In this document: positions 6,846-38,595 of the stretch, piece after piece
Layout: every line of letters starts with the position of its first letter
Position numbering within the stretch: the stretch's first letter is position 1
NCBI GenBank assembly: GCA_017397005.1
Contig: JAFQKJ010000140.1
Location: 7,027 to 71,026, forward strand
Direction of reading: 5' to 3'
Length of the DNA stretch: 64,000 nt
From: Bacillota bacterium
Lineage (GTDB): Bacteria > Bacillota > Clostridia > Peptostreptococcales > Anaerovoracaceae
Program-made: the position numbers and the translations under genes
Notes under the pieces: generated by a model
The model's input: only the letters and a program-made list of their open reading frames with translations
What the model was told of the DNA's origin: nothing
The model's database searches: none

Positions 6846-6850
6846 ATGTG

Positions 6851-6879: not shown

Positions 6880-6939
6880 TACTTTATTGAAAAAATCAAC
6901 GCTTTTATAAATGATTTGTACCCATTTTAACTGTTTTTA

Positions 6940-8217
6940 TTATTTTTTCTCGATCTTATCTGTGCCCATATATTTTCTGAGCGCTTCCGGGATCACTACG
7001 CTGCCGTCCGCCTGCTGATAATTTTCTAAAATAGCAGCTACAGTTCTTCCTATTGCCAGGCCGGATCCGTTTAATGTATGCACTAATTCTGCCTTTGCTT
7101 TTGGCTCAGGTCTGTATCTGAGACCTGCCCTTCTGGACTGATAATCTTCAAAATTGCTGCAGGATGAAATTTCAACATATCTGCCGTAGCTTGGCATCCA
7201 TACTTCTATATCGTATGTCATCGCTGAGCTGAATCCAAGGTCTCCTGTGCAGAGTTTAACCACTCTGTATGGGATTTCTAAAATTTGGAGCACTCTTTCT
7301 GCGCTTTCAAGAAGTGTTTCCAGCTCTGCGTATGAAGTTTCAGGTTTTACCAGCTTAACGAGTTCTACTTTATTGAACTGATGCTGTCTTATAAGACCTC
7401 TTGTGTCTCTTCCTGCTGAACCTGCTTCTTTTCTAAAGCAAGGTGTATATGCTGTGTAGTAAATTGGAAGTTCTGCTCCGTCTATGATCTCATTCATTCT
7501 TAAGTTTGTAAGAGGCACTTCTGCTGTAGGGATAAGGAAGAAATCCTTTGCAGGTACATGGAACATGTCATCTTCGAACTTAGGAAGCTGACCTGTGCCT
7601 GTCATTGCTGCTCTGTTTACCATGAACGGAGGCAGTATTTCGGTATAACCGTGTTCTTCTGTATGAAGATCAAGCATAAAGTTCATAACAGATCTTTCCA
7701 GTCTTGAACCCAATCCTTTATATACAGTAAATCTTGCTCCTGAGATCTTTGCTGCTCTTTCAAAATCAAAGATATCCAGATCTGCTCCTACATCCCAGTG
7801 CGCTTTAAATTCAAAGTCAAACTCTCTAGGAGTTCCCCATCTCTTAACTTCCACATTGTCTTCATCGCTTCCGCCAACAGGAACAGATGGATTTGGTGTG
7901 TTAGGGATGCCAAGTAGAGTGTCCTGAAGTTCTGCTTCAACAGCCTTTACTTTTTCGTCTCCTTCTTTGATTTTTTCTGACAGAACTTTCATTTCTGCCA
8001 TAAGCTCTGTTGTATCTTTACCTTCTTTTTTAAGCTTTGGTATTTCTTTTGATGAAGCATTCTGTTTATTTTTAAGCTGCTCTACTTCAGCAAGTAAAGC
8101 TCTTCTCTGTTCGTCAAGCTCAACAGCTTTAGGAAGATTGAAATCTCCATGACCTCTTGATTCCACAGCTTTTTTAACATCTTCAAATTCACTTCTGATT
8201 CTTTTAATATCCAGCAT
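6940..8217 (-). CDS. serS: seryl-tRNA synthetase
   Basis: 425-aa ORF with an N-terminal coiled-coil arm ([22 protein letters not shown]) and a class II core ([30 protein letters not shown]). Confidence 0.93.
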
Positions 8218-8231
8218 GTCTGCACCACCCT

Positions 8232-10133: not shown

Positions 10134-10155
10134 TTTTCTCTCCTGTATTATATAT

Positions 10156-12987
10156 TTACTGCACTGACGTTGTGTCGCCTTCCAGTGCCTGAAGGTATCT
10201 CTGAAGCTGGTCTAAATAGTCTCCGTATGCTGCCCAGTCGCCGCTCTTCTGTGCAGCCACAGCATTATTGAATGCATCGTTGGCTTTCTGGATCAGTTCT
10301 TCCTGACTTCCTGTAACAGCACTTCCCTGGCCGTCACTGCCTTCATCGCCTTCTGCATCCGGCTCTCCTGCAGGTGCATCTACCTCACCTACATTTACAA
10401 GGCTTCCTATATCTTTACCGAAGAGAGTCTTAAGCGCTTCACCAAGAGTTTCTTCGTAAGCTATAACATCATTATATACTGCTATAACACGTTTTACTTC
10501 CGGCAGACTGCTTTCATTATCCGCCTGCAGATAAATAGGTTCTACATAAAGCAATGAATCTTCTACAGGGATAACAAATATATTTCCTCTCAGATATGTG
10601 GAACCTCTCTGGCTCCAAAGCGAGAATTCTTTTGAAATAGTCGGATCCTGGTCGATCTGTGCTTCTACCTGAGCCGGACCGTATACCGTTTCACCCTTAG
10701 GCATCCTGTATAGCTTCAATTCTCCGTAGTGTTCTCCATCACTTCTTGCAATAAGAAGTCCCGTCATATTGTTCTTGCTTATCGGAGTATAGGATATCGA
10801 TAAAACAAACTCTTCTTCAGTGCTTCCCGGCAGTGACATAATATAATAATTGGATGTCATCTTAGTCTGCTCCTGACCATAGATCTCATTTGCTATATCC
10901 CACTGATCTTCTCCCTGATAGAATACGTTTACGTCAGTCATGTGATACTTTGTATACATGTTTGCCTGGATCTCAAACAGTGCTTTAGGATATCTGATAT
11001 GCTGCTGAAGATCTTCCGGCATCTGATCTATGGATTTGAACAATTCAGGAAATACTCCTGACATTGTCATTACAAGCGGATCGGATTCATCAACGATATA
11101 GAAATCCACATCTCCGTTATACGCATCAACCACTACTTTAACTGAATTTCTGATATAGTTAAGAGTATCTGCATATGGCTCTGCATATGGGTAATAGCTG
11201 CTTGTTGTATAAGCATCCATCATCCAGAAAAGCTTTCCATCCTCTGACACTACCAAATAAGGATCTGAATCGTATGTCAAATACGGAGCGATCTTGTTTA
11301 CTCTGTCAACGATATTTCTGTCAACAAGTATCCTCGAATCAGCAGAGATATTTGTTGATACCAAGATCTTCATACTCTGTTCTCTTATAGCATATAATAC
11401 CCTGTTAAGAAGGTTCAGGTTGATTCCTGAATTTCCTTCATACTCTGTATATACATTGCTTTCCCCTAAAGGATAGTCGAACTCTTTTTCATCAGTATTT
11501 ACGATAACATAGTCATTTGTAAGTTCACCGAAATATATTTCTGGTCTTGTTATCTGTATCTCTTCAATCGAAGATTCAGGCGGAACATTTTCAATAAGAA
11601 TATCCGGCTGTCCCGAAGCAGTGATACTGTTTACTCTAGAGAGAGTAAGACCGTAACCATGAGTGTATTTCAAATGCTTAGTTATCCATTGAGAATTGAT
11701 CCTTGTTTCATCGATCTCTCTGGCAGAAAGGAATACCTGTGTATAGTCTCCATCTATCATATATCTATCAACGTCCACATCGTTGAATGTATAGTATTGT
11801 TTAATACTTTGACGCTGATTGTAGAACTGTTTTGTCGGCTCAAAATCATTTATTCTGATATTTTCAAATATAGCTTCGTTCTTTATGATGTCCTCTGCTG
11901 TAAGAGAATCATCTGCAGCAAAACTATTTTCTTCTATATCCGCTATACCATATGCCGCCTGAGTCATCTGAATATTATTATCAATATATGGACTTTCTTT
12001 TGAAATTTCGTCAGGTGCAACTATGAAATTCTGTACCAAAAGACCTACGCCGTTACCCGCAAGAGAAACAACTATCATAAGCACCGGCATTACAAGAGCC
12101 AGTTTATATTTTTTCTTTGCTATACCTACTGCAAAGAGCACCGCTGCTGCAGCTGCCATGACCATAAGAATCCTGTACTGCCACAGATATATATTAACAT
12201 CAACGAAACTTGCGCCGTATACAGTGCTTCCCTGATGGTACATGAGCTGGAACTGTTTGAGAAAATATCCCAAACCGATGACAACAAAGAATATGACTGC
12301 AAGAACTACTACCTGCCTTACCGCAAGATCAAGAAAAGCCTTCCAGTTTGATGAAAATATCTTCTTGCCCAGTCTTCTTTTATCCTGAAATATGCTTTCT
12401 CCTTCTTCCGCATATGCCTGATCATAAGCATTTTGGAAAAGCTTAGGTCTTCTTACAGACATAAGAAATGCATAATAAATGACAGTTACAACCAAAAGCA
12501 TTACTATTAATGTAGTTGCAATGCTGTATATTTGATTAGCTAAAGGAAGAGTGAATATATATGTGCTTATATCAAGACCAAACAGAGGATCATCTAAATT
12601 GAAGTCTGTTTTGTTTATAAAGCTCATGATCTCATACCATAAAGATGTCGTTGTCATTATGGTTGCAACCAATGCAAACAAAACAGATAGTCCCCATGAT
12701 ACTTTGTTTATTGTCTTGTCTTTCACGCTGAAGCTGACTATCTCCATTTTCTTGAAATAGTCTCCGTTTATAAACTTCAAATACAGACGGATCAGCAGTG
12801 TCAGTATAACAAAACACGGTATACCCAGTTTGAGCTGAGACAAAAGTTTAGTGAAAAATACACTTACATAGCCCAGATCCTTGAACCATAAATAATCTGT
12901 ATAGAACCCTATCAGCACTCCTGCCAAAGCTCCCAGTATTAAAATAGTAATAACTATTCCCAATAAAATTTTCTTTAATTTACCCAT
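10156..12987 (-). CDS. UPF0182-family large polytopic membrane protein
   Basis: The track ORF is 961 aa. The likely true start is the ATG at 12987 (MGKLKKILLG), with GGGAG 8 nt upstream. It has N-terminal multi-TM segments with the FYTDYLWFKDLGY signature I associate with UPF0182. A large soluble domain and an acidic C-terminal tail follow. Confidence 0.7.
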   Translation of the reverse strand: MGKLKKILLGIVITILILGALAGVLIGFYTDYLWFKDLGYVSVFFTKLLSQLKLGIPCFVILTLLIRLYLKFINGDYFKKMEIVSFSVKDKTINKVSWGLSVLFALVATIMTTTSLWYEIMSFINKTDFNLDDPLFGLDISTYIFTLPLANQIYSIATTLIVMLLVVTVIYYAFLMSVRRPKLFQNAYDQAYAEEGESIFQDKRRLGKKIFSSNWKAFLDLAVRQVVVLAVIFFVVIGLGYFLKQFQLMYHQGSTVYGASFVDVNIYLWQYRILMVMAAAAAVLFAVGIAKKKYKLALVMPVLMIVVSLAGNGVGLLVQNFIVAPDEISKESPYIDNNIQMTQAAYGIADIEENSFAADDSLTAEDIIKNEAIFENIRINDFEPTKQFYNQRQSIKQYYTFNDVDVDRYMIDGDYTQVFLSAREIDETRINSQWITKHLKYTHGYGLTLSRVNSITASGQPDILIENVPPESSIEEIQITRPEIYFGELTNDYVIVNTDEKEFDYPLGESNVYTEYEGNSGINLNLLNRVLYAIREQSMKILVSTNISADSRILVDRNIVDRVNKIAPYLTYDSDPYLVVSEDGKLFWMMDAYTTSSYYPYAEPYADTLNYIRNSVKVVVDAYNGDVDFYIVDESDPLVMTMSGVFPELFKSIDQMPEDLQQHIRYPKALFEIQANMYTKYHMTDVNVFYQGEDQWDIANEIYGQEQTKMTSNYYIMSLPGSTEEEFVLSISYTPISKNNMTGLLIARSDGEHYGELKLYRMPKGETVYGPAQVEAQIDQDPTISKEFSLWSQRGSTYLRGNIFVIPVEDSLLYVEPIYLQADNESSLPEVKRVIAVYNDVIAYEETLGEALKTLFGKDIGSLVNVGEVDAPAGEPDAEGDEGSDGQGSAVTGSQEELIQKANDAFNNAVAAQKSGDWAAYGDYLDQLQRYLQALEGDTTSVQ

Positions 12988-24670: not shown

Positions 24671-25816
24671 TTACTTAAACTTCTCCGCTGCTTTTCTAAG
24701 GATATCTGTCTTATCCGTCTTTTCCCAAGGAATGTCTATGTCTGTTCTTCCCATATGACCGTAAGCAGCAACCTGTCTGTATATCGGTCTTCTAAGGTCT
24801 AATGCTTTGATTATTCCTTTCGGTGTAAAATCAAACTGTTCTGCTGCGATCTGAGCAATGTCTTCATCTGCGATCACACCTGTTCCAAAAGTCTCTACCA
24901 TTACCGATACAGGTTCTGCAACTCCTATAGCATAAGCCAGCTGTATTTCACATTTTTCAGCCAGACCTGCAGCTACGATATTTTTAGCAGCGTATCTTGC
25001 TGCGTATGCAGCACTTCTGTCAACTTTTGTTGGATCTTTTCCTGAGAAAGCTCCGCCGCCGTGTCTTGCATATCCGCCGTAGGTGTCTACGATGATCTTT
25101 CTGCCTGTAAGACCGGAATCTCCTTTTGGCCCTCCTGTAACAAATCTTCCTGTTGGGTTTACAAAATATTTAGTTTCATCATCAAGAAGTTCTGCAGGCA
25201 CTACTGCTTTGATAACATATTCTATGATATCTTTTCTTATCTGTTCTTGTTCAACATCTTCATCATGCTGTGTTGATATAAGGACTGTATCAACTCTCTT
25301 AGGTTTATCTCCTTCGTATTCAACAGTTACCTGAGTTTTTCCGTCAGGTCTTAAATATGTAAGGACGCCTTCTTTTCTTACCTGTGTAAGTCTTCTTGCT
25401 AATTTATGTGCAAGAGATATCGGCATTGGCATAAGTTCTTCTGTTTCATTGCACGCATAGCCAAACATAAGACCCTGGTCCCCCGCTCCGTCTCTGTCAA
25501 CACCCATAGCGATGTCTCCTGACTGTTCATCTATAGAAGTTATAACAGCGCAGTTTTCAGCATCAAAGCCGTACTTTCCTCTTGTATAACCAATGTCTGT
25601 GATAACGTTTCTTATAAGTTTAGGAATGTCGATGTAACACTGTGTAGTGATCTCCCCAACCACCAGTACAAGGCCTGTTGTCACTGTTGTTTCTGCAGCA
25701 ACTCTGCCCATTGGATCCTGTTCTAAGATAGCGTCCAAGATGGCATCTGAGATCTGGTCGCATATTTTATCAGGATGGCCTTCGGTAACGGATTCTGATG
25801 TAAATAATCTCTTCAT
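24671..25816 (-). CDS. metK: S-adenosylmethionine synthase
   Basis: 381-aa ORF with [32 protein letters not shown] and [16 protein letters not shown]. Confidence 0.96.
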
Positions 25817-25834: not shown

Positions 25835-25985
25835 ATAAAAACTCTTCTATCAGAAGAAGAGGCTGCTAACTTTTGTCTTTTTCCTCATCTTCCAGAATAC
25901 TCTGCAGGAATTAGCACCTTAAATCTGATGTTCAGGTTGCCGGGCTTCACAGGGCCTGTCCCTCAGCCTCTCTTGATAAGGTATT
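25835..25985 (-). promoter_or_regulatory. SAM-I (S-box) riboswitch with expression-platform terminator
   Basis: The minus-strand RNA reads CUUAUCAAGAGAGGCUGAGGGACAGGCCCUGUGAAGCCCGGCAACC...AAGGUGCUAAUUCCUGCAG, which matches the S-box consensus. The terminator is CUCUUCUUCUGAUAGAAGAG (about 25842-25862) plus a U tract. ORF 25919-26131 overlaps it and is rejected. Confidence 0.9.
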
Positions 25986-27956: not shown

Positions 27957-29123
27957 ATGACAGAAAAACTTTTTCAGATAGATCCTTATTTAAAACAGAC
28001 AGAAGCCGAGATAGTTGAGGTTTCTGAAGACACTTTGGCCCTTGACAGGACCATCTTTGCTCCGGAAGCCGGAGGTCAGGCCAGCGATCTTGGAACGATA
28101 GACGGAATAGACATGCTCCATGCAGAAGAAAAAGACGGTATCGTGTATCATAAAATGGCAGACATTCCTTCAGGATTTAAAGCCGGCGCGAAAGTAAAAC
28201 TTGAACTGGACTGGGAAACTCGTTTTGACCATATGCAGAATCACTGCGGAGAACATATTATTTCCGGCATTCTGTTCACAAAGTACGGCATAGGAAACAA
28301 AGGCTTCCATTTGGGGAGCGAATTCTCAACTTTGGATGCAGATATGAAACAAATGCCTCAGGAAATGGTGGATGAAGTAGAACGTCTTGCCAACAAAGCC
28401 GTATTTTCAGCCGTTCCTGTCACAGTGGATATGATCGAATCAAAGGAAGAGGCGCAAAAGCTTCCATTAAGAAAAGAGCTCAAAGTCGATGAAGATATTT
28501 CCATAGTTACTATCCCGGGAATAGACTGCGTTGCCTGCTGCTGTCCTCATCCTTCAGATACATCCCAGGTAGGCCTTATTAAAATCATAAAAGCAGAAAA
28601 CTACAAAGGAATGACCCGTATTTATTTCAAATGCGGCATGAGAGCCTTTGAGGACTACAAACTTAAACACGATATCATCACCGTTCTTAATAAGAAATAC
28701 TCTTCGGAAGAGCATAATCTCATAGAAAACATCAAGATCCAGGATAATAAAAACAACGAGATGCGTCGGGATCTTTACGCTATGAAGTCCAAATTCGCTC
28801 TTATGGAAGCAGAACGTCTTGTTGCTGACTCAGAAAAAGTCGTTTCTTTTGAATACGACGATCAAAGTCTGGACGACCTTAAATTTATGGCCAAGAAGAT
28901 AATGGAGATAACAGATCTTCCGGTGATCCTCTCTTCCACCTCCTGCATGACAGTGCTGCTTACTCATTCCGGCAAAAGCAAGCTTAAATGCGGCAAGCTG
29001 GTCAAGGAATTTGCCTGCGGCTTTGGCGGCAAGGGCGGAGGCAGTGATACTCTGGCTCAGGCTCTGTTCAGCGATGTGGAAATAATGAGAAATTTTGTAA
29101 AAATTTCATTGATGTCAGTCTGA
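27957..29123 (+). CDS. AlaX-type alanyl-tRNA editing protein (AlaRS second-additional-domain family)
   Basis: 388-aa ORF with zinc-site motifs HCGEHII (HxxxH) and CCCPH (CxxxH). The N-terminus (DPYLKQTEAEIV) resembles the AlaX N-domain. Confidence 0.75.
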   Translation: MTEKLFQIDPYLKQTEAEIVEVSEDTLALDRTIFAPEAGGQASDLGTIDGIDMLHAEEKDGIVYHKMADIPSGFKAGAKVKLELDWETRFDHMQNHCGEHIISGILFTKYGIGNKGFHLGSEFSTLDADMKQMPQEMVDEVERLANKAVFSAVPVTVDMIESKEEAQKLPLRKELKVDEDISIVTIPGIDCVACCCPHPSDTSQVGLIKIIKAENYKGMTRIYFKCGMRAFEDYKLKHDIITVLNKKYSSEEHNLIENIKIQDNKNNEMRRDLYAMKSKFALMEAERLVADSEKVVSFEYDDQSLDDLKFMAKKIMEITDLPVILSSTSCMTVLLTHSGKSKLKCGKLVKEFACGFGGKGGGSDTLAQALFSDVEIMRNFVKISLMSV

Positions 29124-29137
29124 TCCCCATATATAAT
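29109..29137 (+). promoter_or_regulatory. sigma-A-type promoter candidate for the nitrogenase-like cluster
   Basis: TTGATG (29109-29114), a 17-nt spacer, then a perfect TATAAT (29132-29137). It overlaps the 3' end of the alaX-like gene. Confidence 0.55.
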
Positions 29138-29167
29138 ATAATTAGAAAATCTGATATCGAAATTTTA

Positions 29168-29229
29168 TTGAGATAGAAGATGCGGCAACACGGAATAAAC
29201 CGTATCTTTTTGATGCGGTTTTTTGTTTT
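29168..29229 (+). promoter_or_regulatory. leader 1: conserved box plus antiterminator/terminator switch
   Basis: The box is TTGAGATAGAAGATGCGGCAA (29168-29188). AGAUGCGG (29178-29185) can pair with CCGUAUCU (29200-29207). The alternative is the terminator AAACCGUAUC-UUUUU-GAUGCGGUUU (29197-29221) plus a U-rich tail, which ends 19 nt before the ATG at 29248. Confidence 0.6.
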
Positions 29230-29247
29230 GCATCTACAGGAGGTAAC

Positions 29248-29496
29248 ATGGAAACAAGAGTAGCCATTATAGGCATAATAGTTGAAAATGTGGATGCTGC
29301 AGAAGAGATCAACGAGCATCTCCACAACTACGGAGCTTACATCATCGGCAGGATGGGGATCCCTTACAGAGAAAAAGGTATAAGCATCATCAGTGTAGCT
29401 ATCGACGCACCTCAAGATGTCATCAACACTCTTGCAGGAAAGATAGGAAGGCTTCCGGGAGTAAGTACAAAAACAGTATACTCCACCACTAAATAA
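29248..29496 (+). CDS. TM1266-family small ACT/NikR-C-like protein (annotated elsewhere as a putative iron-only hydrogenase system regulator)
   Basis: 82-aa ORF with a strong Shine-Dalgarno sequence (AGGAGG). The sequence RVAIIGIIVEN...YIIGRMGIPYREKGISIISVAIDAP...LPGVSTKTVY matches my memory of the TM1266 family. It is paralogous to the C-terminus of the ABC ATPase at 30662-31741. Confidence 0.7.
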   Translation: METRVAIIGIIVENVDAAEEINEHLHNYGAYIIGRMGIPYREKGISIISVAIDAPQDVINTLAGKIGRLPGVSTKTVYSTTK

Positions 29497-29544
29497 CCGA
29501 TAAGAAAAAAGAATATCATGCTGCCCTGACATCAAAAACCTTGT

Positions 29545-29625
29545 TTGAGATGAAAGATACGCAAGTCACAAGTGTTTGTATTTTTTGACCTACAGCCGTA
29601 TCTTCAGGATGCGGCTTTTATAATT
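29545..29625 (+). promoter_or_regulatory. leader 2: paralogous box plus antiterminator/terminator switch
   Basis: The box is TTGAGATGAAAGATACGCAA (29545-29564). AGAUACG (29555-29561) can pair with CGUAUCU (29597-29603). The alternative is the terminator GCCGUAUC-UUCAG-GAUGCGGC (29595-29615) plus UUUUAUAAUU, which lies just before the ATG at 29637. Confidence 0.6.
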
Positions 29626-29636
29626 GGAGAAACACT

Positions 29637-30665
29637 ATGAAAGATAATATGGCCGCCTCACGAGGCAAACTTAAAAAAATAGAATTTTTGGTGCTGGTGC
29701 TCTTTCCTATAGTCTGTGTCCTGTTTGCACTGTCTGTAGGAAGATTCTCCGTACCTGTAACAGAAATTTTCCATTCTATACTTAATAAATTTTCATTTGA
29801 TTTTGAACTTTCAGGTCAGACAGAACTTGTCCTGTGGACCATGAGATTCCCCAGGATCCTTATGGCTCTCCTCGTAGGAGCGGGACTTTCTGTTGCAGGC
29901 TGCATTTTCCAAAGCCTGTTTTCAAATCCTCTGGCATCCCCAGACACGCTGGGAGTGGCATCCGGATCAAGCTTCGGCGCCGCACTGGCACTGCTCCTCG
30001 GTGCAAACCTTATACTGGTTCAAGCCTCAGCCTTGATTTTCGGACTCTGCGCCATGGCCCTGACCTGGATCTCAGGAAGCGGGAGAAACAGCAATAAAGT
30101 ATCTATAGTCTTAGCCGGCATCGTTATCGGCTCACTCTTCTCCGCTTTGGTCTCCCTTGTTAAATTTTCCGCAGATACCGAATCAGAGCTTCCTTCCATA
30201 ACCTACTGGCTCATGGGAAGTCTCAGCTCTGCCGGATACAACACCATAGCACTTGGATGCCCTCTCATCATTTTAGGCATACTCATCCTTTTCCTTTTAA
30301 GATGGAGACTTAATTCTCTTCCATTATCTGACGACGAAGCCTCCTCTCTTGGAATAAACGTAAAAGGGCTAAGGATAGTCTGCATCCTCTGTGCTTCAGC
30401 TATAACCGCTGCATCGGTTTCAATGTGCGGACCCGTAGGCTGGATAGGTCTTCTCATCCCTCATATCTGCAGGATGAGATTCGGCAGCAGCCACGTATCG
30501 CTTCTGCCGGCTTCAGTTCTGGCAGGCAGCGGATTTATGGTACTGGTGGACACAGCTGCAAGAAGCATCTCTCCTTCAGAGATACCGGTATCCATTCTTA
30601 CAGCCATCCTTGGCGCACCATTCTTCATAATCCTCATGAAAAAGAGCGGGGGGTGGAATTTATGA
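29637..30665 (+). CDS. FecCD/BtuC-family ABC transporter permease
   Basis: 342-aa polytopic ORF. RFPRILMALLVGAGLSVAGCIFQSLFSNPLASPDTLGV is the typical FecCD signature. Confidence 0.88.
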   Translation: MKDNMAASRGKLKKIEFLVLVLFPIVCVLFALSVGRFSVPVTEIFHSILNKFSFDFELSGQTELVLWTMRFPRILMALLVGAGLSVAGCIFQSLFSNPLASPDTLGVASGSSFGAALALLLGANLILVQASALIFGLCAMALTWISGSGRNSNKVSIVLAGIVIGSLFSALVSLVKFSADTESELPSITYWLMGSLSSAGYNTIALGCPLIILGILILFLLRWRLNSLPLSDDEASSLGINVKGLRIVCILCASAITAASVSMCGPVGWIGLLIPHICRMRFGSSHVSLLPASVLAGSGFMVLVDTAARSISPSEIPVSILTAILGAPFFIILMKKSGGWNL

Positions 30666-31741
30666 TAATAAAAGTTGAAAACGGCTGTTTTACATATAAG
30701 CACGGCAGGCGTCAGGTCCTGGACAATATAAACTTCGAAGCATCTGCCGGAGATGTAGTGGCTATTCTAGGCCCTAACGGTGCAGGAAAGACCACACTTC
30801 TACGCTGCACTATGGGTTTCCTTAAATGGAGCAGCGGAAGAAGCCTCTTAGAAAGCAAAGATTTCAGAAACCTTCCGGGAAAAGAGCTTTGGAAGACCCT
30901 TTCCTACGTTCCTCAAGCCAAACAGGTCTCTTCGGCATATACTGTCAGAGAAATGGTCCTTCTTGGAAGAAGTGTAGAGATAGGTGTTTTTTCTCTCCCT
31001 TCAAAAGAAGATGTCAGAAAAGCCGACGCTGTGATAGAAAAATTAGGGTTGTCCAGGATCGCTGATTCAAAATGTTCCGAGATCAGCGGCGGAGAGCTCC
31101 AAATGGTCCTCATAGCAAGAGCTCTCGTATCAGAACCGAAGGTCCTGATACTGGACGAGCCCGAATCAAATCTCGACTTCAAAAATCAGCTTTTGGTCCT
31201 GGATACCATAACAGAACTTGCGGCGTCGGGCGTGTGCTGTATTTTCAACACACATTATCCTTCCCATGCCCTCAGAAGAGCAAACAAGACATTGATGCTT
31301 TCTCCAGGCGGCAGTCATCTTTTCGGGAATACCAGAGATATCATCACAGAAGAAAATATAGAAAAAGTATTCGGAGTTCATGCTGTTATCGGAGACATTG
31401 AATCAGAAGAAAAGATCTTCCAGGATGTAGTGGCAGTAGGTATAAAAGCAGACTCTGATCAAACTCAGACAAAAGGATCCTCTGGCTCCGCAGTAGCTAC
31501 AGTATCCATCATTGTCTCGGATACGTCCATAGTTACAGATGTGAACAGCATCCTTCATAGATATTCTAAATACATAATCGGCCGAATGGGCATGCCGTAT
31601 AAAAAAGCCGGCTTTAATATGATAAACATTTTCCTGGATGCTCCTGTAACGGAGATCCGGGCACTTACAGACAAGCTCAATCTCCTGCCGGAGATCAGCG
31701 TAAAAACCACTTATGGAAAGGAGCTGAATCAGCATAGATAA
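30662..31741 (+). CDS. ABC transporter ATP-binding protein fused to a C-terminal TM1266/ACT-like domain
   Basis: The true start is the ATG at 30662 (MIIKVENG), in an ATGA overlap with the permease stop. The track ORF from 30425 is an out-of-context extension. It has Walker A GPNGAGKTT, the signature ISGGELQ and Walker B LILDEP. The last ~85 aa (VSIIVSD...YIIGRMGMPYKKAGFNMINIFLDAP...LPEISVKTTY) align with the 82-aa protein. Confidence 0.85.
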   Translation: MIIKVENGCFTYKHGRRQVLDNINFEASAGDVVAILGPNGAGKTTLLRCTMGFLKWSSGRSLLESKDFRNLPGKELWKTLSYVPQAKQVSSAYTVREMVLLGRSVEIGVFSLPSKEDVRKADAVIEKLGLSRIADSKCSEISGGELQMVLIARALVSEPKVLILDEPESNLDFKNQLLVLDTITELAASGVCCIFNTHYPSHALRRANKTLMLSPGGSHLFGNTRDIITEENIEKVFGVHAVIGDIESEEKIFQDVVAVGIKADSDQTQTKGSSGSAVATVSIIVSDTSIVTDVNSILHRYSKYIIGRMGMPYKKAGFNMINIFLDAPVTEIRALTDKLNLLPEISVKTTYGKELNQHR

Positions 31742-31751
31742 GACAAATAAG

Positions 31752-32789
31752 ATTCGAATAGACATTTTAAATGAAACAAAACAGCTATCCTTTGAAGACT
31801 GGAACCATCTCCTGTCCACATGGACAGAACATGACTTTGACTATTCCTGCAGTCTTGCCAGATCGTCAGCGCTAAACACCTTTGGAAACAAAGTATTCTT
31901 CAGAGGGATAATCGAGTTTACTAATATATGCAAAAATGACTGCCTGTACTGCGGTATCAGAAAGTCCAACAATAACGTTGTCCGCTACAGACTTTCAAAA
32001 GAAGAAATAATGATATGCTGTGCCGAAGGGTACGAGCTGGGCTACAGGACCTTTGTTCTACAAGGAGGAGAAGATCCCTATTACAATGACGATGTCATGG
32101 AAGATATCGTTATGGAGATCCGCAGGACCCACCCTGACTGCGCTATCACACTGTCTCTGGGAGAAAGAAGTAAAGACTCTTACCAAAGACTTTATGATGC
32201 AGGAGCTGACAGGTATCTTCTTAGGCACGAAACAGCAGACTCCTGTCACTATTCACAGCTTCATCCTAAGGAAATGTCCCTTGAAACAAGACTTAACTGC
32301 TTAAATGACCTTAAAGAAATCGGCTATCAGACCGGCTGCGGCATGATGGTAGGCTCTCCTTTCCAGACAACGGAGCTTTTAGCAAAAGATATGATGTTTT
32401 TAAGCAAGTTCAAACCCCATATGGTAGGCATGGGCCCGTTTATTCCTCACGGAGCCACTCCTTTCAAGGATCATCCGGCAGGAAGCCCGGAACTCACGCT
32501 CTTCCTTTTGAGCCTTGTGCGCATAATGCTGCCTGACGTGCTTCTGCCTGCCACCACAGCTTTAGGCTCCCTGCAGGATAACGGGCGTTTAAGAGGTCTT
32601 CTTGCGGGCTGCAACGTAATAATGCCAAACCTGTCTCCTATGTCCATCAGAAAAAAATACCTTCTGTATGACAATAAAGCAGGAGTAGATACTGACGCAA
32701 GAGAAAGTCTCAGGATGTTAAAAGAACAGGTCAAAGAAATCGGCTACGAAATGTCCTCTGAAAGAGGCGACTATAAAGAGAGGTATTGA
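31752..32789 (+). CDS. HydE-family radical SAM enzyme (start codon unresolved)
   Basis: The frame is open from 31728. Translation gives ...[13 protein letters not shown]...[22 protein letters not shown] (CX3CX2C), then [34 protein letters not shown]-like [19 protein letters not shown] and CNVIMPN. These follow the T. maritima HydE sequence as I remember it. The first in-frame ATG, at 32010, is downstream of the radical SAM motif. The 5' end at 31752 assumes an ATT start; see findings. Confidence 0.75.
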
Positions 32790-32790
32790 T

Positions 32791-33546
32791 ATGATAAAAA
32801 TAGCTATTTACGGGAAAGGCGGTATAGGCAAGTCCACTACCGTATCAAATCTGTCTGCTGCAATGGCAGACAAAGGTTTTAAAGTTCTTCAAATAGGCTG
32901 CGACCCTAAGGCAGATTCCACCTTCACTCTTCATGGCAAAGAGTCAGTGAAAACAGTACTGGATCTTGTAAAAGAAAGAAAAGACGGTTTTGAACTGGAA
33001 GACATGGTGACCATAGGCTACAAAGGAGTTGTCTGTGTAGAAGCTGGCGGCCCTACTCCTGGAGTAGGCTGTGCCGGCAGAGGTATAATGGCGGCCTTGG
33101 AAAAGCTTGAACAGAAAGGGGCTTATGAAAAATATCAGCCTGATATCGTATTTTACGATGTTCTTGGGGATGTTGTCTGCGGAGGTTTTTCAATGCCTAT
33201 GAGAGGCGGATATGCAGAAAAGGTATTTATCATAACTTCAGGAGAAAACATGGCAAGACATGCAGCTGCTAACATAGCTATGGCCATAGATAACTTCAAA
33301 AACAGAGGGTATGCAGCTTTGGGCGGTCTTATCCTCAACAAAAGAAACGTAAAAAATGAAGAAGAAAAAGTCCAGGAGCTGGCAGAGGATTTCAACACTT
33401 CTATCGTTGGGACCCTTTCAAGAAGTGAAACTGTGCAGGATGCAGAAGAACTGAATAAAACCGTTATAGAAGCCTTCCCTGACAGCCCAATGGCAGAAGA
33501 ATACAGAAAGCTGGCAGACACTATTCTGGGAATTTGTGAGGTGTGA
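32791..33546 (+). CDS. NifH/BchL/CfbC-family ATPase (nitrogenase iron-protein-like)
   Basis: 251-aa ORF with Walker [11 protein letters not shown], switch [10 protein letters not shown], and cluster cysteines in GVGCAGRGI and [14 protein letters not shown]. Confidence 0.9.
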
Positions 33547-33548
33547 TC

Positions 33549-34877
33549 ATGTTAAAAAGATTATTCGATCCTAATGACACCACCGGTGCTGCAGTTAAAA
33601 TCGCAGAAGCAAATTTTCCGGCCCCCTTTGTTTCGGGTCTGGAATACGGTGCTCCTGCAAGAGGCACTTGGAACATAGTTCATACAGGCATGCTGATCCC
33701 AGATGCACACCAGGTATTCGTCTGCGCCTCCAATTGTCTCAGAGGAGTAGTTTTAACAGCAGCAGAAATGAATGCCTCCCATAGATTTTCAACAGTTACC
33801 ATAAAAGAAAATAATGTGCTTGAAGGGGATATGGAAGACCTCATCATAGAAGGAGTAAGCGATATTATAAATAAGCTTGCGAAAAGGCCTCCGGCAGTTC
33901 TGGTTTACACCAGCTGCATACACCACTTTATCGGATGCGATCTTTCTTTATGCTACAAAGAACTGAGAAAAAGATTTCCGGATATAGCTTTTACCGACTG
34001 TTACATGAACCCTATCATGAGAAAAAGCGGTCTGACTCCGGACCAGATAATGAGAAGACAGCTTTACAGTATACTTGAGCCTAAAACTATAAATCCAAAA
34101 AGCATTAACATCATAGGCAACAACTACGCTACTGACGGCGACAGCGACATAGTAAGACTTATCCGAAAAGGCGGATATTCTCTTAAAGAGGTCCCTCTGT
34201 GCAATACATATGAAGAATATCAGCAGATGGCAGAAAGCTTTCTTAACATTTCGTATAATCCTGCGGCTTTAGCAGGAGGAGAATATCTCAAAAATACCCT
34301 TGGCCAGCAGCATATATACCTGCCTCTCTCCTATAACAAAGACGAGATCAGGAACGCCATGAAAAAATTGAGCGAGGTATTGGGCATAGAATACAAAGAA
34401 GATAAAGAAGATGAAAGAAAAGCGGATTATGCTTTGAGCAAAGCTCTGGAAATCATTGGAGATGCTCCAATAACTATAGACTATACTGCCACCACCAGAC
34501 CGCTTAGTCTGGCAAGGCTCCTTATCGAAAAAGGATTCAACGTAGAAAGAGTTTATGCAGACTCCTTCTCAAAGGATGACCATCCGGATTTTCTGTGGCT
34601 TAGAGAAAACAGCCCTGATTTGGATATCTACGCAACAGTGCATGTAAAACTGAGAGTCCTGCCTAGAAACTATGAACAAAAAACTCTGGCCATAGGTCAA
34701 AAAGCAGCATATTTTACCGGTACAGCAAACTTTGTAAACATCGTGGAAGGCGGCGGATACTACGGTTTCAGCGGCATAGAAAAACTGGCAAAACTTATGG
34801 TCGAAGCTTTTATTGAAGAAAAAGATACCCGCTGTTTAATACAGCAAAAAGGATTGGGGTGTGAAAGCTGCATATGA
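33549..34877 (+). CDS. nitrogenase component 1-type oxidoreductase, D/E/N-like subunit
   Basis: About 442 aa. The ATG at 33549 has GAGGTG 6 nt upstream; the track uses the GTG at 33543, which overlaps the nifH-like stop. VYTSCIHHFIGCD resembles the V-STC---IGDD motif of NifD/E. Cys also occurs in FVCASNC. The terminal motif is CX8CX2C. Confidence 0.7.
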   Translation: MLKRLFDPNDTTGAAVKIAEANFPAPFVSGLEYGAPARGTWNIVHTGMLIPDAHQVFVCASNCLRGVVLTAAEMNASHRFSTVTIKENNVLEGDMEDLIIEGVSDIINKLAKRPPAVLVYTSCIHHFIGCDLSLCYKELRKRFPDIAFTDCYMNPIMRKSGLTPDQIMRRQLYSILEPKTINPKSINIIGNNYATDGDSDIVRLIRKGGYSLKEVPLCNTYEEYQQMAESFLNISYNPAALAGGEYLKNTLGQQHIYLPLSYNKDEIRNAMKKLSEVLGIEYKEDKEDERKADYALSKALEIIGDAPITIDYTATTRPLSLARLLIEKGFNVERVYADSFSKDDHPDFLWLRENSPDLDIYATVHVKLRVLPRNYEQKTLAIGQKAAYFTGTANFVNIVEGGGYYGFSGIEKLAKLMVEAFIEEKDTRCLIQQKGLGCESCI

Positions 34878-36031
34878 AACAGACACAGGCATTTTTATCA
34901 ACATACACAGCGGATGTTTCCGGAGTATGCTCGGCCCTCTTTGAACTGGGAGGCATGACAGTCATGCACGACCCTTCCGGTTGTAACTCTACATATAATA
35001 CCCACGATGAACCAAGATGGTATGACACAGACAGCCTTGTATTTATCTCCGCACTGTCTGAGATCGAAGCCATAATGGGAGATGATCAGAAGATCATAGA
35101 CGATATAATAGATGCGGCAAATCAGCTCAAACCGGCGTTCATAGCCATTGCCGGCACACCTATCCCTATGATGATCGGCACAGATTTTGATGCTATTGCT
35201 TTAGAAATAGAGGATGCCACCGGCATACCGACTATGCCATTTCCTACAAATGGTATGCATTCCTACATAAGCGGAGCGGGTATGGCTCTTGCAGGATATG
35301 CAAAACGTATGTTAAAGGACAGCCCGGAAGAAGTCCTGCCAAGGTCAATGAATATACTTGGGGCCACCCCTTTAGATTTTTCAGTAAACGGCTCTGTAGC
35401 TTCCATGAAAGAATTCTTTGAAGAAAATGGCTGGAATGTCCTTAGCACCTGGTCTATGGGCTCTTCCCCTGAAGATCTTGCAAAATCCGGAAAAGCGGAA
35501 GTCAACTTAGTAATATCATCCGTTGGTCTTGAAACCGCTAAATTCCTTAAAAACAAATACGGTACACCTTATGTTACAGGCACGCCCTGCGGGGAAAAAT
35601 TTAATGAGTTTATCCTGAAAGCTTTAGAAAAAGCTGCAGGCTCAAAGGATGAAACAACAGCTTTTCCCGATATCCCTGAGGAGAATAGAAAACTTGTTAT
35701 ATTCGGAGAAAGCATAACCTCCCGCTCCCTTGCATCTGCTCTTTATCTCGAATACGGCATTTGTGCAAGAGTCATCTCACCAATAGAAACTCCGGATGGC
35801 ATCTTGTCAGGCTCTGATGCCTGTCTTTCTGAAGAAGATGACATAACAGAATCTTTAAAAGGCGTTAAAATGGTGATCGGAGATCCAATGTACAAGCCTC
35901 TAATTCCTGAAGGAGTAAAACACATACCTCTTCCTCACGAAGCCTATTCCGGCAGGATATTCAGAAGGGATATACCAAATTTGGTAAAAGATATTACTCA
36001 ATATTTTGAAAGGAGACTTCTCAATGAATAA
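34874..36031 (+). CDS. nitrogenase component 1-type oxidoreductase, K/N/B-like subunit
   Basis: 385-aa ORF in an ATGA overlap with the previous gene. DVSGVCSALFELGGMTVMHDPSGC resembles the NifK/N ACQPLGA...HGSQGC region. IAIAGTPIPMMIGTD resembles the TTC--E-IGDD region but lacks the Cys. Confidence 0.68.
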   Translation: MKQTQAFLSTYTADVSGVCSALFELGGMTVMHDPSGCNSTYNTHDEPRWYDTDSLVFISALSEIEAIMGDDQKIIDDIIDAANQLKPAFIAIAGTPIPMMIGTDFDAIALEIEDATGIPTMPFPTNGMHSYISGAGMALAGYAKRMLKDSPEEVLPRSMNILGATPLDFSVNGSVASMKEFFEENGWNVLSTWSMGSSPEDLAKSGKAEVNLVISSVGLETAKFLKNKYGTPYVTGTPCGEKFNEFILKALEKAAGSKDETTAFPDIPEENRKLVIFGESITSRSLASALYLEYGICARVISPIETPDGILSGSDACLSEEDDITESLKGVKMVIGDPMYKPLIPEGVKHIPLPHEAYSGRIFRRDIPNLVKDITQYFERRLLNE

Positions 36032-37148
36032 GTATTTTAAAAAGCTGGTTTGCTTTATAACGATTCTGGCTATGGTATTCACCCTTGCTGCCTGCGCAGG
36101 AGACGGCGGATCCGCTGAAAACACCGGCGATACAGTAACTGTAACAGACCACGCCGGATATGAAGTGACACTTCCTGTAAATCCTGAACGTATCGTAGTC
36201 TGTGACATAGTACCTCTTCCTTCTGTTCTTTCTGTATTCTTTGACTCGGCAGAAAAAATAGTAGGCATGACCCCGACCAGCATGAGTGCTGCAGAAAACG
36301 GACTTCTCAGTGAACTCTATCCAGAGATCCTGAATGCTGAAACAAGCTTTATCAACGGAACAGACGTAAATGTAGAAGAACTTCTTCTTTTAGACCCTGA
36401 TGTGGTTTTCTACAGTGCAGGAACTGCCGCCCTCGGCGATCTTCTCAGAGAATCCGGATTTAATGCAGTAGGCATTTCAGTTAATAAATGGGATTACGAC
36501 TGCATTGAAACTTTAGAAAACTGGATCTCCCTCATCTCTCAAATATTCCCGGACAACGACAAAACCGATGCTGTTGCCGAATACAGCAATAAGGTTTACG
36601 ATCTGGTTCAAAGCAGAGTAAAGGATATCCCAGAAGATGAAAAAGAAGAGATATTCTTCCTGTTTAAATACGGCGAAACAGATCTTATGACTTCCGGCAC
36701 GAATTTCTTCGGCCAATGGTGGGCTGAATCCATAGGGGCAATAAACGTTGCCGAAGAACTTACTCAGGAAAATCAAGTTTCTATCAATATGGAACAGGTA
36801 TATGCCTGGGATCCCGAAATGATTTTCATATCAAATTTCACATCTGCAATGCCAGAAGACCTTTATAACAACACTGTAGGCAACTATAACTGGAGCGGCA
36901 TCGAAGCCGTAGAAGAAAAAGAGGTATATAAAATGCCTCTGGGAATGTACAGAAGCTATACTCCTGGGGCTGATACCCCTATCACTCTCCTTTGGATGGC
37001 AAAGACTGTTTACCCTGAACTCTTTACAGATATAGATATAATCGAATACACTATCGACTACTACGAAACTGTTTTCGGTGTTACCCTTACAGAAGAACAG
37101 GCTGCATCTATATTCAGCCCGGCAAGAGAAGCTGCTGCAGGATTTTAA
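36024..37148 (+). CDS. BtuF/FecB-type (Peripla_BP_2-like) ABC substrate-binding lipoprotein
   Basis: The ATG at 36024 has AAAGGAGA upstream and overlaps the previous gene by 8 nt. It has a signal peptide with lipobox LAAC, then DPDVVFYS-type cluster-A binding-protein features. Confidence 0.8.
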   Translation: MNKYFKKLVCFITILAMVFTLAACAGDGGSAENTGDTVTVTDHAGYEVTLPVNPERIVVCDIVPLPSVLSVFFDSAEKIVGMTPTSMSAAENGLLSELYPEILNAETSFINGTDVNVEELLLLDPDVVFYSAGTAALGDLLRESGFNAVGISVNKWDYDCIETLENWISLISQIFPDNDKTDAVAEYSNKVYDLVQSRVKDIPEDEKEEIFFLFKYGETDLMTSGTNFFGQWWAESIGAINVAEELTQENQVSINMEQVYAWDPEMIFISNFTSAMPEDLYNNTVGNYNWSGIEAVEEKEVYKMPLGMYRSYTPGADTPITLLWMAKTVYPELFTDIDIIEYTIDYYETVFGVTLTEEQAASIFSPAREAAAGF

Positions 37149-37153
37149 ACGAA

Positions 37154-37182
37154 AAAAGGAGAAGTATCAAACTTCTCCTTTT
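37154..37182. terminator. bidirectional intrinsic terminator between convergent genes
   Basis: Perfect 12-bp stem AAAAGGAGAAGT-ATCAA-ACTTCTCCTTTT, with A/T runs on both sides. Confidence 0.8.
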
Positions 37183-37185: not shown

Positions 37186-38595
37186 TTACGGTCTGCAAAT
37201 TTTACACGCTTCATACCCTTTATTTACTGCTTCTTCTCTGGTTGATATATTTACTCGGTTACCTAAGGATATCTTTTCTGCATAAGTGCAGGTGGATAAA
37301 TGGAACTTCTTAGAATTTGCATTTCCAACATACTGAGTAACTGTCACATCGGTATTGCCGTCTGAAACATAAAAGTCTCCTGCATCTCCTATATTCATAG
37401 TTTTGTTCGTACTGAATGAATACCCTGATCCGCTGGTAGTAAGTACGACATTTCCGCTTTTGCTGGTTCCATAAACCTTTGTTCCTCTGTCTAAAAGCCT
37501 TTGAAGAGTTTCCTTGTGAGGATGATCATAGCTGTTTCCTATCCCAGCACTGACCACCGCAACTTCCGGTTTTACAATTCTGAGAAATGCCGCAGAGGTA
37601 GAATATCTGGAGCCATGGTGGCCGACTTTTAACACATCTACATCAGAAAATTTATTAAGATTCTTTTCTTCTACTGTACTTCCCATATCCCCGGTCAAAA
37701 GCAATTTGAAATCCCCATAGCTTACCAAAGCTATTACAGAATTATCATTAGCACTTTCATAGTTATCCCCGGTTTCTATTATTTTGACAGTCACCGCTCC
37801 GCCAATATTTATAGTCATATCCTTATCATAGATGAATTCACAGCCTTCTGCTGCTGCTGCGTTATAATAAGAATTCGCTGTTGCAGTGTTTTTTATAAAC
37901 CCCGAATCTATGATCTGGTCAACTTCATAATCATTTATTACAATATCCAGACCGCCAACATGGTCCGCATCCGGATGCGTCGCTATTATATAGTCCAAAG
38001 AATAGTCGACATAAGGCTTGATGTAAGCACTTACAGTATCCCCATCTTTATTATTTCCTCCATCCACAAGGATCTCTGTAGTTCCGTAATCAAGGAATAT
38101 GGCATCAGCCTGACCAACATCTATAAAGTGCACCGTCAGATTTTTCTTTTCAACTGCGGTTTCGGAATCGCCTTCCATTGTTACGATTACAGTCTGTGTA
38201 GATGGATCCCAGTCTACCTTTGCTCCAAAAGCTTCAAGCACAGCCCTTATAGGAAGGTAAGTCCTGTTGTCTTTTATAACAGCTACAGTATCATTTTGTC
38301 TTTTTTCACCATTTACGAGAATGTAGCTCGATCCAACAGGAACTTCTACCAGTATGCCGTCTTTTTCAACAAGGGCGGTTTTTCTTGCATCATCCCAGTT
38401 TACCTCACATCCACAGCTTTCCATAGTTATCCTGAGAGGGACCTGAGTCCTGTTTGCTGCGTCAATAAAAGGTTCCCCGTATACTTCGTTAAACTCAACA
38501 CCTTTACCGTCTATATTTATATTTACAGCAAAAGCCATAACACTGCCTGCCAGCAGCACCGTCAGAAATATTAAAAAAGAGTAGATTTTTCTCAT
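37186..38595 (-). CDS. secreted MBL-fold (ComEC C-terminal-like) metallo-hydrolase, with an N-terminal copper-amine-oxidase-like stalk domain and a C-terminal Ada-like zinc module
   Basis: 469-aa ORF with a signal peptide. Cu_amine_oxidN1-like repeats (RTYLPIRAVLEAFGAKVDWD). MBL motifs (HFIDVGQADA, ATHPDADHVGG, KVGHHGS). The C-terminus is KKFHLSTC...YEACKICRP. Confidence 0.75.
   Translation of the reverse strand: MRKIYSFLIFLTVLLAGSVMAFAVNINIDGKGVEFNEVYGEPFIDAANRTQVPLRITMESCGCEVNWDDARKTALVEKDGILVEVPVGSSYILVNGEKRQNDTVAVIKDNRTYLPIRAVLEAFGAKVDWDPSTQTVIVTMEGDSETAVEKKNLTVHFIDVGQADAIFLDYGTTEILVDGGNNKDGDTVSAYIKPYVDYSLDYIIATHPDADHVGGLDIVINDYEVDQIIDSGFIKNTATANSYYNAAAAEGCEFIYDKDMTINIGGAVTVKIIETGDNYESANDNSVIALVSYGDFKLLLTGDMGSTVEEKNLNKFSDVDVLKVGHHGSRYSTSAAFLRIVKPEVAVVSAGIGNSYDHPHKETLQRLLDRGTKVYGTSKSGNVVLTTSGSGYSFSTNKTMNIGDAGDFYVSDGNTDVTVTQYVGNANSKKFHLSTCTYAEKISLGNRVNISTREEAVNKGYEACKICRP

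Follow-up and report, generated by a model that had tools for sequence, protein, structure and literature searches.

Nitrogenase-like H, D and K proteins of gut and rumen Clostridia are often encoded beside hydrogenase maturation genes and follow a conserved leader RNA and TM1266-like gene

The known nitrogenase-like enzymes perform N2 fixation, tetrapyrrole reduction or C-S bond cleavage. A 2026 Chemical Reviews survey, which covers the Nfa, Cfb, Mar, Isr, DPOR/COR and group VI systems, states that genomic context gives few clues and mentions neither HydE nor a link to hydrogenases. Earlier, Dos Santos et al. (2012, PMC3464626) had noticed NifHEN-like genes beside hydrogenase maturation genes in Coprococcus catus and other Firmicutes, and other nitrogenase-like genes near ATP-binding cassette (ABC) transporters, and had proposed a role in the assembly of hydrogenase metalloclusters; they gave no function, put no numbers on the association and described neither TM1266 nor a leader RNA. 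For clostridial acetogens, a 2022 survey of hydrogenase maturation lists the HypCDEF genes discussed below and does not note their nitrogenase-like neighbours (PMC9431212), and a full-text search of the literature found no functional study of this clade. Here, we report on a nitrogenase-like gene cluster in a 64,000-nucleotide stretch of contig JAFQKJ010000140.1 from an Anaerovoracaceae bacterium (the window, whose positions are used throughout). Eight tightly packed genes form one operon on the plus strand (29248-37148), coding in order for a TM1266-like protein, a FecCD permease, an ABC ATPase, the radical S-adenosylmethionine (SAM) enzyme HydE, the nitrogenase-like proteins H, D and K (together HDK) and a PF01497 substrate-binding protein (SBP). 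The family is a real and widespread variant of the superfamily in gut and rumen Clostridia, previously glimpsed and uncharacterised; what is new is its quantified link to HydE/HydF and HypFCDE, its optional importer, its conserved leader-TM1266 module and a defect in the window copy of hydE.

H is a NifH-like ATPase in which the Walker A motif GKGGIGKS and the cluster cysteines Cys94 and Cys130 are invariant in 75 homologues; the initial annotation had described an intact Walker A and both cysteines. Its scores are 323 bits with the nifH model (cut-off 394), 320 bits with CfbC (cut-off 402), 202 bits with BchL (cut-off 345) and 162 bits with BchX (cut-off 331). D and K both pass the 28.6-bit cut-off of PF00148 (Oxidored_nitro), the family whose absence would have spoken against that annotation. 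Their best curated match is the NifE model (cut-off 505), with 24.7 bits for D and 75.1 bits for K. The alternative-nitrogenase alpha model TIGR01284 (cut-off 513) gives D 19 bits; for K, the nifD model gives 45 bits (cut-off 654) and the nifK model 23 bits (cut-off 427), and K alone has a score on the CfbD model TIGR03282 (34 bits, cut-off 268). The BchB model gave 52 bits (cut-off 490). When solved structures were searched by sequence, the best E-values were 0.03 for D and 6.5e-10 for K, with NifE as the best though weak match.

The AlphaFold2 model of D (predicted local distance difference test score 87, predicted template modelling score 0.87) has the three-domain Rossmann-type fold of nitrogenase component 1. 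Foldseek returned 129 matches in the PDB at E <= 0.001, and among the best 50 of these 129 all are nitrogenase, NifEN, Mar or DPOR chains. The model is equally far from AnfK, NifN, NifE, NifK, MarD/K and BchN/B, with template modelling (TM) scores of 0.55-0.64 and identities of 12-16%. The three proteins were placed by hidden Markov model cut-offs together with this fold comparison, which covers the D model only. By these measures, H, D and K would be an ATP-dependent nitrogenase-like electron-transfer system outside all curated families of assigned function. Indeed, the Nif, DPOR, COR and CfbCD models all score well below cut-off, no protein reaches the cut-off of any functionally assigned curated clade and the radical SAM partner is not of the Mar type, so that the combination cannot be mapped onto any characterised system, as had been proposed from the start.

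In D, C61, C65 and C125 are invariant across 75-80 homologues, and in K the same holds for C37, which sits inside a nearly invariant block of 20 residues. Motif alignment equates D C61 with NifD alpha-C62, D C125 with alpha-C154 and K C37 with NifK beta-C95. The positions of NifD C88, C275 and H442 are not kept as ligands in D: that of alpha-C275 holds Asn in a motif alignment with the C. pasteurianum NifD segment, and that of alpha-H442 probably holds Val, as aligned to the A. vinelandii sequence. This cysteine pattern leads us to predict a single DPOR-like inter-subunit [4Fe-4S] cluster in DK, with neither P-cluster nor FeMo-co; its predicted ligands are D-Cys61, D-Cys125, K-Cys37 and possibly D-Cys65.

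On shared features, the window family appears to match the “red” clade of Dos Santos et al. (PMC3464626), made of NifHEN-type proteins from Coprococcus catus GD/7 and from Dorea longicatena as well as Dhaf_1539/1540 and Mlab_1039/1040. Both have the same two-plus-one cysteines (alpha-C62 and alpha-C154 in one subunit, beta-C95 in the other), and the loss of the alpha-C275 and alpha-H442 ligands was also reported for that clade. Both occur in gut Firmicutes near hydrogenase maturation proteins and ABC transporters, with two linked copies in some genomes.

Among the better known systems, the NifB-NifH-NifEN line of nitrogenase also combines a radical SAM gene with H, D and K-type proteins, and NifE is the best, if weak, match of D and K. 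In that line NifH works on a cofactor-precursor scaffold, whereas here HydE replaces NifB and ligands for an L- or P-cluster are missing. In CfbCD, too, a NifH-like ATPase works with a PF00148 component that has a simple [4Fe-4S] cluster, and H scores nearly equally on the CfbC and NifH models; however, CfbD is homomeric, whereas two distinct subunits are kept here at all loci, and the window has neither cfbABE genes nor a methanogen context. DPOR (BchL/N/B) is heteromeric, with an asymmetric inter-subunit [4Fe-4S] cluster held by 3 + 1 ligands, and reaches a TM score of about 0.6 with the D model, but no pigment pathway is present here and the predicted fourth ligand is a K cysteine. The neighbourhood of group VI NflHDK from Elusimicrobia is rich in genes for B12-binding and HemN-type radical SAM proteins; the neighbourhood seen here is different, with a single HydE and no B12-radical SAM or HemN_C genes. 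Finally, the HydE and TM1266-like proteins of the window are true members of the families found in the T. maritima hydE/hydF/hydG and TM1266 set. Canonical H-cluster maturation needs no nitrogenase-like proteins or importer.

The spread of the family was examined with K in one genome per GTDB species, and at least 526 species carry it. Clustering at 90% identity divides the D family into at least 3283 groups, a few of which hold over 1000 metagenomic members each. The 80 species loci that were fetched all come from Clostridia or unclassified Bacillota, and H-D-K is intact in 69 of the 69 loci where the contig permits. Forty-four of the 80 are fully covered, and 38 of these 44 have a maturase (HydE, HydF or HypFCDE) within 9 kb. 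The commonest combination is ABC, TM1266, HydE and HydF (19/44), followed by HDK flanking HypF-HypC-HypD-HypE (9/44), ABC and TM1266 only (6/44), ABC, TM1266 and HydF (5/44), ABC, TM1266 and HydE (4/44) and HydE only (1/44). HydF adjoins HDK in 24 of the 44 loci. All HydF, HydG, HypC, HypD, HypE and HypF assignments exceed the NCBIfam cut-offs, and every other gene family recurs in six loci at most. These gene contents, family placements and co-localisation statistics are direct observations.

Three arrangements can be distinguished. Type A, that of the window, reads TM1266 - permease - ATPase - [HydE] - H - D - K - SBP - [HydF], where brackets mark genes that may be missing; neighbourhood profiling, proposed initially as a check, found that the eight-gene layout recurs among Clostridia, with variants. 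In type B, found in Clostridium ljungdahlii, C. carboxidivorans, C. drakei and relatives and in some Lachnospiraceae, a paralogous H2-D2-K2 set is followed by HypF-HypC-HypD-HypE and then by H-D-K. Between the two sets, the H proteins are about 50% identical and the D and K proteins 23-30%; H2-D2-K2 occurs at ten of the loci (L006, L013, L017-L019, L022, L023, L027, L044 and L055, at about 150-11100 in each). Type C reads HypE - TM1266 - H - D - K - TcdA/ThiF-like protein - HydE, and two loci (L071 and L079) thus combine HypE, TM1266, HDK and HydE. Their TcdA/ThiF-like protein, an E1-type adenylyltransferase encoded between the K-like gene and hydE (L071 4373-5086, L079 5170-5928), scores 163 bits on the TcdA model, below its cut-off.

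HDK is thus embedded in two kinds of maturation gene sets, Hyd and Hyp, and is co-regulated with hydE, hydF and hydG, as the leader described below indicates. Both the Hyd and the Hyp systems make CO/CN-carrying iron, and we therefore rank highest an accessory role for HDK around such an iron unit. Our leading interpretation, a tentative one to which we give a little less than an even chance, is that HDK works within the regulon of hydrogenase-cofactor maturation, as an ATP-driven reductase or scaffold and not as a catabolic unit of its own. Doubtful, in our judgement, is the more specific proposal that the H/DK system is a hitherto unrecognised component of the biosynthesis of CO/CN-ligated iron cofactors, either as a reductase or scaffold with HydE/HydF or HypFCDE or as an enzyme with such an active site, under a new protein-RNA attenuation system in which TM1266 binds the leader hairpin. 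As a reductase or scaffold it could, for example, make or reduce the Fe-carbonyl-cyanide unit, or could provide an anaerobic supply of CO.

The same neighbourhoods bear on the idea that DK is itself a new metalloenzyme, whose own Fe-CO/CN cofactor would be built by HydE/HydF or HypFCDE in analogy with nifB/marB-HDK, NifB-type radical SAM partners being the builders of the Nif, Nfa and Mar clusters. The gene order does mirror B-H-D-K with HydE in the B position, and both Fe-CO/CN assembly lines flank HDK in different lineages. At the type B locus of C. carboxidivorans (L013) lie the only HypF of this organism and a second HypCDE set (PMC9431212), apart from the set listed with hypAB. Apart from the predicted cluster ligands, C153, C220, C440, C443, H47, H56 and H127 of D are also well conserved. 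However, an Fe-CO/CN cofactor in DK would be hypothetical, suggested by analogy, HydE is absent from 22 of 55 HDK operons, and the acetogens with HypFCDE beside HDK also own a [NiFe] hydrogenase that requires Hyp proteins. We regard this alternative as quite unlikely.

The co-regulation of HDK with maturase genes is best seen in the leader RNA. The first gene encodes a TM1266-like protein that scores 114 bits on TIGR03959 (cut-off 60.8), 108 bits on PF21699 and 52 bits against TM1266 itself (PDB 2nzc); the initial statement that such genes were defined by their co-occurrence with hydE/F/G was right. Two leaders, upstream of this gene and between it and the permease gene, have in common a 40-nt element with the consensus YCUGA-CNNC-GAAA...UUGA-GNNG-RAAG followed by AUACRG. 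It folds into three short helices with two purine-rich 2x2 internal loops between them. In leader 1, the 3′ strand of the hairpin, GAAGAUGCGG, can alternatively pair with the 5′ arm of the terminator. Because the 3′ strand and the bases that follow it can pair in both ways, hairpin and antiterminator are mutually exclusive.

A covariance model of the element (R1) has 35 matches in 1.3 Mb, all directly upstream of the operon and on its strand, and none elsewhere. A leader alignment chosen beforehand for complementarity at two of the pairs overstates covariation; a search anchored only on unpaired positions is free of that bias, and yielded 34 matches in 1.3 Mb. All four central pairs are intact in 31 of the 34, two have one mismatch and the last is an unrelated chance match. 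The stem occurs in five compensatory versions (CAUC/GAUG, CACC/GGUG, CGCC/GGCG, CGUC/GACG and UAUC/GAUA), so that covariation is directly observed. R1 misses two variant forms, one with a longer apical stem, CUGACGCU...GCGGCGAAAG, and another that reads CUGACAGAAAG...CUGACUGAAAGG; such variants lie in the TM1266-permease gap in L007, L008, L010 and L016 and upstream of TM1266 in L032, L058, L061 and L063.

No Rfam family matches the leader: at the gathering threshold the window yields just two matches, a T-box and a SAM riboswitch, both elsewhere, and a permissive scan of 28900-29800 returned only noise. In 11 related loci, no riboswitch lies upstream of the operon. At one locus (L007), a cobalamin riboswitch is found near the cluster (344-519, minus strand); it lies on the opposite strand, facing away, and therefore does not control the operon. 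That a simple irregular hairpin constantly accompanies a small ACT-fold protein suggests attenuation through a protein and not through a riboswitch. As an attenuation element the hairpin is a new candidate, and the TM1266-like protein may bind it.

We also scanned a metagenome collection for the commonest exact hairpin variant, blind to genes, which gave 40 contigs (L086-L125). Unrelated coding sequences account for two of them, and another five break off too early; in each of the 33 informative contigs the motif adjoins a TM1266-like gene. What follows this gene varies: an ABC permease in 17 contigs, HydE directly in eight, HydF in two and an SsuA-like binding protein in one. Three of the eight TM1266-HydE contigs continue into HydG (587 bits, cut-off 312), and thus the module found here also precedes hydE-hydG. 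Motif-led operons include TM1266-hydE-hydG, TM1266-hydE-hydF-HDK, TM1266-hydF-HDK and TM1266-ABC-hydE-HDK-SBP-hydF, and importer-free ones include TM1266-hydE-hydF-H-D and TM1266-hydF-H2-D2-K2. Since the hairpin always stands beside a TM1266 gene and the maturases, HDK and ABC genes vary after it, hairpin and TM1266 form a regulatory module of H-cluster maturase genes, of which HDK and the importer are frequent, optional members.

The importer is of type II (BtuCD/FecCD/MolBC-like), with a FecCD permease, an ABC ATPase and a cluster A PF01497 SBP. All substrate-specific NCBIfam models of the permease fall below cut-off, as do the importer equivalogs BtuC, FecD, FhuB, heme, corrinoid, IsdE and SstD, so its substrate cannot be named. 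The C-terminal domain of the ATPase scores 74 bits as a TM1266-like domain and is 43% identical to the stand-alone protein. The C-terminal domain of MetN is a sensor of the trans-inhibition type, and by analogy the TM1266-like domain looks like such a sensor. The solved structures nearest to the SBP are the unliganded structural-genomics entry 4ovk, MolA/HI_1472 (molybdate/tungstate), a putative iron-binding protein of T. maritima and the nickel-binding CeuE of H. pylori; BtuF reaches 19 bits only. About 130 SBP positions are at least 93% conserved in 58 homologues, and Trp, Tyr and Arg are abundant in the protein, whereas none of its Cys is conserved. The importer is absent at 10 of the 44 fully covered loci and from many metagenomic operons, and is thus an optional member of the operon.

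These data weigh on the view, emphasised in the initial annotation, that the operon handles an imported chelate or tetrapyrrole. In this alternative, an imported metal chelate (a siderophore, haem, corrinoid or other metallo-organic compound) would be reduced or dismantled by the nitrogenase-like enzyme and the HydE-like enzyme, for example by ATP-driven reductive release of metal from a chelate of very low potential, and the link to maturases would reflect only the co-regulation of iron supply with a large sink for iron. It is helped by the FecCD/PF01497 importer that lies within the operon at 34 of the 44 loci, by the ligand-sensing-type domain of the ATPase, by the six loci that have ABC, TM1266 and HDK and no maturase, and by the high conservation of the aromatic and arginine-rich SBP, which suggests a defined anionic or planar ligand. 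Nevertheless, HDK occurs without importer beside HypFCDE (nine loci) and in TM1266-hydE-hydF-HDK operons, and the SBP is closer to MolA and Ni-CeuE than to BtuF or to haem or siderophore binders. Moreover, tetrapyrrole, siderophore and haem genes do not recur around the cluster in the related loci, and neither a cobalamin nor any other known riboswitch controls the operon. Altogether, we consider this alternative unlikely, and the emphasis on an imported substrate found no support. A tetrapyrrole or corrinoid as the substrate was rejected, no supporting neighbour, riboswitch or SBP similarity having been found. Of the two options first offered, an imported-substrate reductase and a cofactor pathway, it is the latter that is favoured, with HydE, HydF and HypFCDE as partners and a module in common with hydE-hydG.

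A further comparison concerns MarBHDK/IsrBHDK. The order radical SAM-H-D-K of these systems is also found here, and comparison of H with the Fe protein chain in 9fmg gives 244 bits; the Mar structures 9fmg and 9d9u share 14% identity with the D model at TM scores of 0.55-0.63. As remarked initially, the operon echoes marBHDK in gene order and differs from it in the partner family, which is HydE and not NifB-like. A sulfur-metabolism enzyme of this kind would cleave C-S bonds of an imported organosulfur compound, as the characterised non-tetrapyrrole nitrogenase-like enzymes of group IV do cleave such bonds. HydE attacks cysteine or thiazolidine sulfur, and one motif contig has an SsuA-like binding protein after TM1266, both of which fit. 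However, the surroundings of the cluster show no recurrent cysteine, methionine or sulfonate genes and the window operon has no sulfur neighbours, the P-cluster-type cysteines usual in Mar are missing from D and K, the radical SAM partner belongs to the HydE type rather than the NifB type, and the transporter is FecCD-type. This explanation is thus very unlikely. In the contig in question (L125, 4312-5751), the SsuA-family lipoprotein, of the sulfonate/nitrate type, stands after leader and TM1266 in place of Hyd or HDK genes.

Coming back to the reductase or scaffold in the maturation regulon, we infer its substrate, the direction of regulation and TM1266-RNA binding as follows. H would be a NifH-like homodimer with a bridging [4Fe-4S] cluster, and D with K a NifEN/BchNB-like catalytic or scaffold component. 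H would spend ATP to drive low-potential electrons into DK, which may reduce, assemble, hold or recycle an iron-containing precursor of a CO/CN-ligated cofactor, in a role parallel to that of NifH and NifEN downstream of the radical SAM enzyme NifB. Its partners would be the [FeFe] H-cluster maturases HydE and HydF and, in other lineages, HypF, HypC, HypD and HypE, which make the Fe(CN)2CO unit. The importer, which the majority of versions have but some lack, would deliver a metal species, with the TM1266-like domain of the ATPase feedback-inhibiting uptake. When the signal is abundant, the leader hairpin would be stabilised, probably by the TM1266-like protein, the antiterminator blocked and transcription stopped.

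Several observations speak against this interpretation. The functional assignment rests wholly on gene neighbourhood, in none of the loci examined does HydG adjoin HDK, and six of the 44 loci have ABC, TM1266 and HDK without a nearby maturase. E. coli makes active [FeFe] hydrogenase from HydE, HydF and HydG alone, and HDK is therefore not essential for the canonical pathway; co-regulation could merely reflect a common iron demand. In a neighbour-joining tree, HydEs linked to HDK make up a clade of their own, the sister of the HydG-linked HydEs; they could be either housekeeping copies or specialised paralogues for another product. Finally, hydE of the window has a premature stop.

HydE itself is a clear family member, above the TIGR03956 cut-off of 254.6 bits, with 47.5% identity to T. 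maritima HydE across 284 residues and the CX3CX2C motif CKNDCLYC. In the window, its open reading frame (ORF) has no ATG, GTG or TTG before this motif. The window D protein is 100% identical to a public protein, “MAG: nitrogenase [Firmicutes bacterium]”, and three other assemblies of the organism that holds it (L081-L083) have TGG at codon 5 where the window has TGA; their hydE begins ATG GAA AGG AGC TGG. As these conspecific assemblies read through from that ATG, the normal start corresponds to window 31713, with a 29-nt overlap with the ATPase gene. The G-to-A change at 31727 also gives Asp-to-Asn in the overlapping end of the ABC ATPase gene. HydE homologues start with Met/Val/Leu-Thr-Asn a few codons past the TGA. 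The window copy thus carries either a strain-specific W5* nonsense change or a base error. Selenocysteine or read-through at this TGA was rejected, the codon being TGG in the three conspecific assemblies and the homologues starting after it.

The family is of interest beyond this window. It is among the commonest nitrogenase-like families of gut, rumen and acetogenic Clostridia, and contributes to the “pseudo-nifH” signal that gut surveys record. If true, a working link to the Hyd/Hyp maturases would add a fourth chemistry to the superfamily, and could bear on iron delivery, on reductive steps and on an anaerobic CO source for [NiFe] enzymes. The carriers include industrial acetogens with genetic tools, so the hypothesis is testable. 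The leader hairpin and its TM1266-like partner offer a first handle on the regulation of H-cluster maturation genes.

The features of the operon are collected below. All gene junctions given in the initial annotation are borne out by the ORF coordinates: an ATGA overlap joins permease and ATPase genes (30662-30665), the HydE stop (32787-32789) is followed by a 1-nt gap before the ATG of H (32791), an ATGA overlap joins D and K (34874-34877), and the ATG of the SBP gene (36024) precedes the K stop (36029-36031), giving an 8-nt overlap. At the H/D junction, a GTG at 33543 overlaps the TGA at 33544-33546, with ATG 33549 as the alternative start; the public annotation of D uses the ATG (442 aa). 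Curated profiles likewise agree with each family proposed at the outset (permease, ATPase with an extra domain, HydE, NifH-like protein, two component-1-like subunits, lipoprotein and TM1266-like protein), and the two attenuator-like leaders and the bidirectional terminator were recovered as terminator-like hairpins and a hairpin flanked by A- and T-runs.

Table. Features of the nitrogenase-like operon and its flanks, in window coordinates
Feature	Position	Strand	Support
Sigma-70-like promoter candidate, TTGATG-17-TATAAT	29109..29137	+	Consensus scan, 10/12 matches; consensus match only
Leader 1, conserved irregular hairpin	29146..29187	+	Covariance model R1, 46.7 bits; minimum free energy fold agrees
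Leader 1 intrinsic terminator, CCGTATC...GATGCGG and T-run	29197..29228	+	Hairpin 29197-29221; fold
TM1266-like small ACT-fold protein, 82 aa, putative regulator	29248..29496	+	TIGR03959, PF21699
Leader 2, second hairpin copy	29521..29564	+	R1, 47.5 bits; fold
Leader 2 intrinsic terminator	29594..29624	+	Hairpin 29594-29616; fold
FecCD/BtuC-type (type II) ABC importer permease	29637..30665	+	PF01032, 295 bits
ABC ATPase with C-terminal TM1266-like domain (residues 278-349)	30662..31741	+	ABC_tran, 113 bits
HydE-family radical SAM gene, TGA at codon 5 (31725-31727)	31713..32789	+	TIGR03956, 541 bits
NifH-like Fe-protein ATPase (H)	32791..33546	+	PF00142, 304 bits
D-like PF00148 subunit, 442 aa from ATG	33549..34877	+	PF00148, 66.8 bits; GTG 33543 start also possible
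K-like PF00148 subunit	34874..36031	+	PF00148, 115.8 bits
PF01497 substrate-binding lipoprotein (SBP) of the importer	36024..37148	+	PF01497, 64 bits; lipobox LAAC
Bidirectional terminator, common to the convergent gene 37186-38595	37154..37182	.	Hairpin between A-run and T-run

The absence of hydA, hydF and hydG from the window, also noted initially, agrees with our scans: at the level of motifs and BLAST, no HydA, HydF or HypE motif occurs in the window and HydF and HypDEF have no BLAST match. No HydG-type signature was found in the window, where HydE is the single radical SAM ORF with a CxxxCxxC motif, and no nif genes are present in it. Most window ORFs of at least 200 aa lie on the minus strand, so the operon is indeed opposite to most of its neighbours.

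Among these neighbours, the convergent gene (37186-38595, minus strand) encodes a protein of 469 aa with a copper amine oxidase N-terminal-like domain and a metallo-beta-lactamase domain, as read by Pfam from the identical locus L081; it is not kept beside the cluster in other species. The SAM-I riboswitch of the window (25882-25982, minus strand, 89 bits) lies directly upstream of an S-adenosylmethionine synthetase gene (24671-25816, minus strand; Pfam assignment also from L081). The T-box leader (6596-6831, minus strand, 118 bits) lies upstream of a 557-aa ORF (4826-6499, minus strand).

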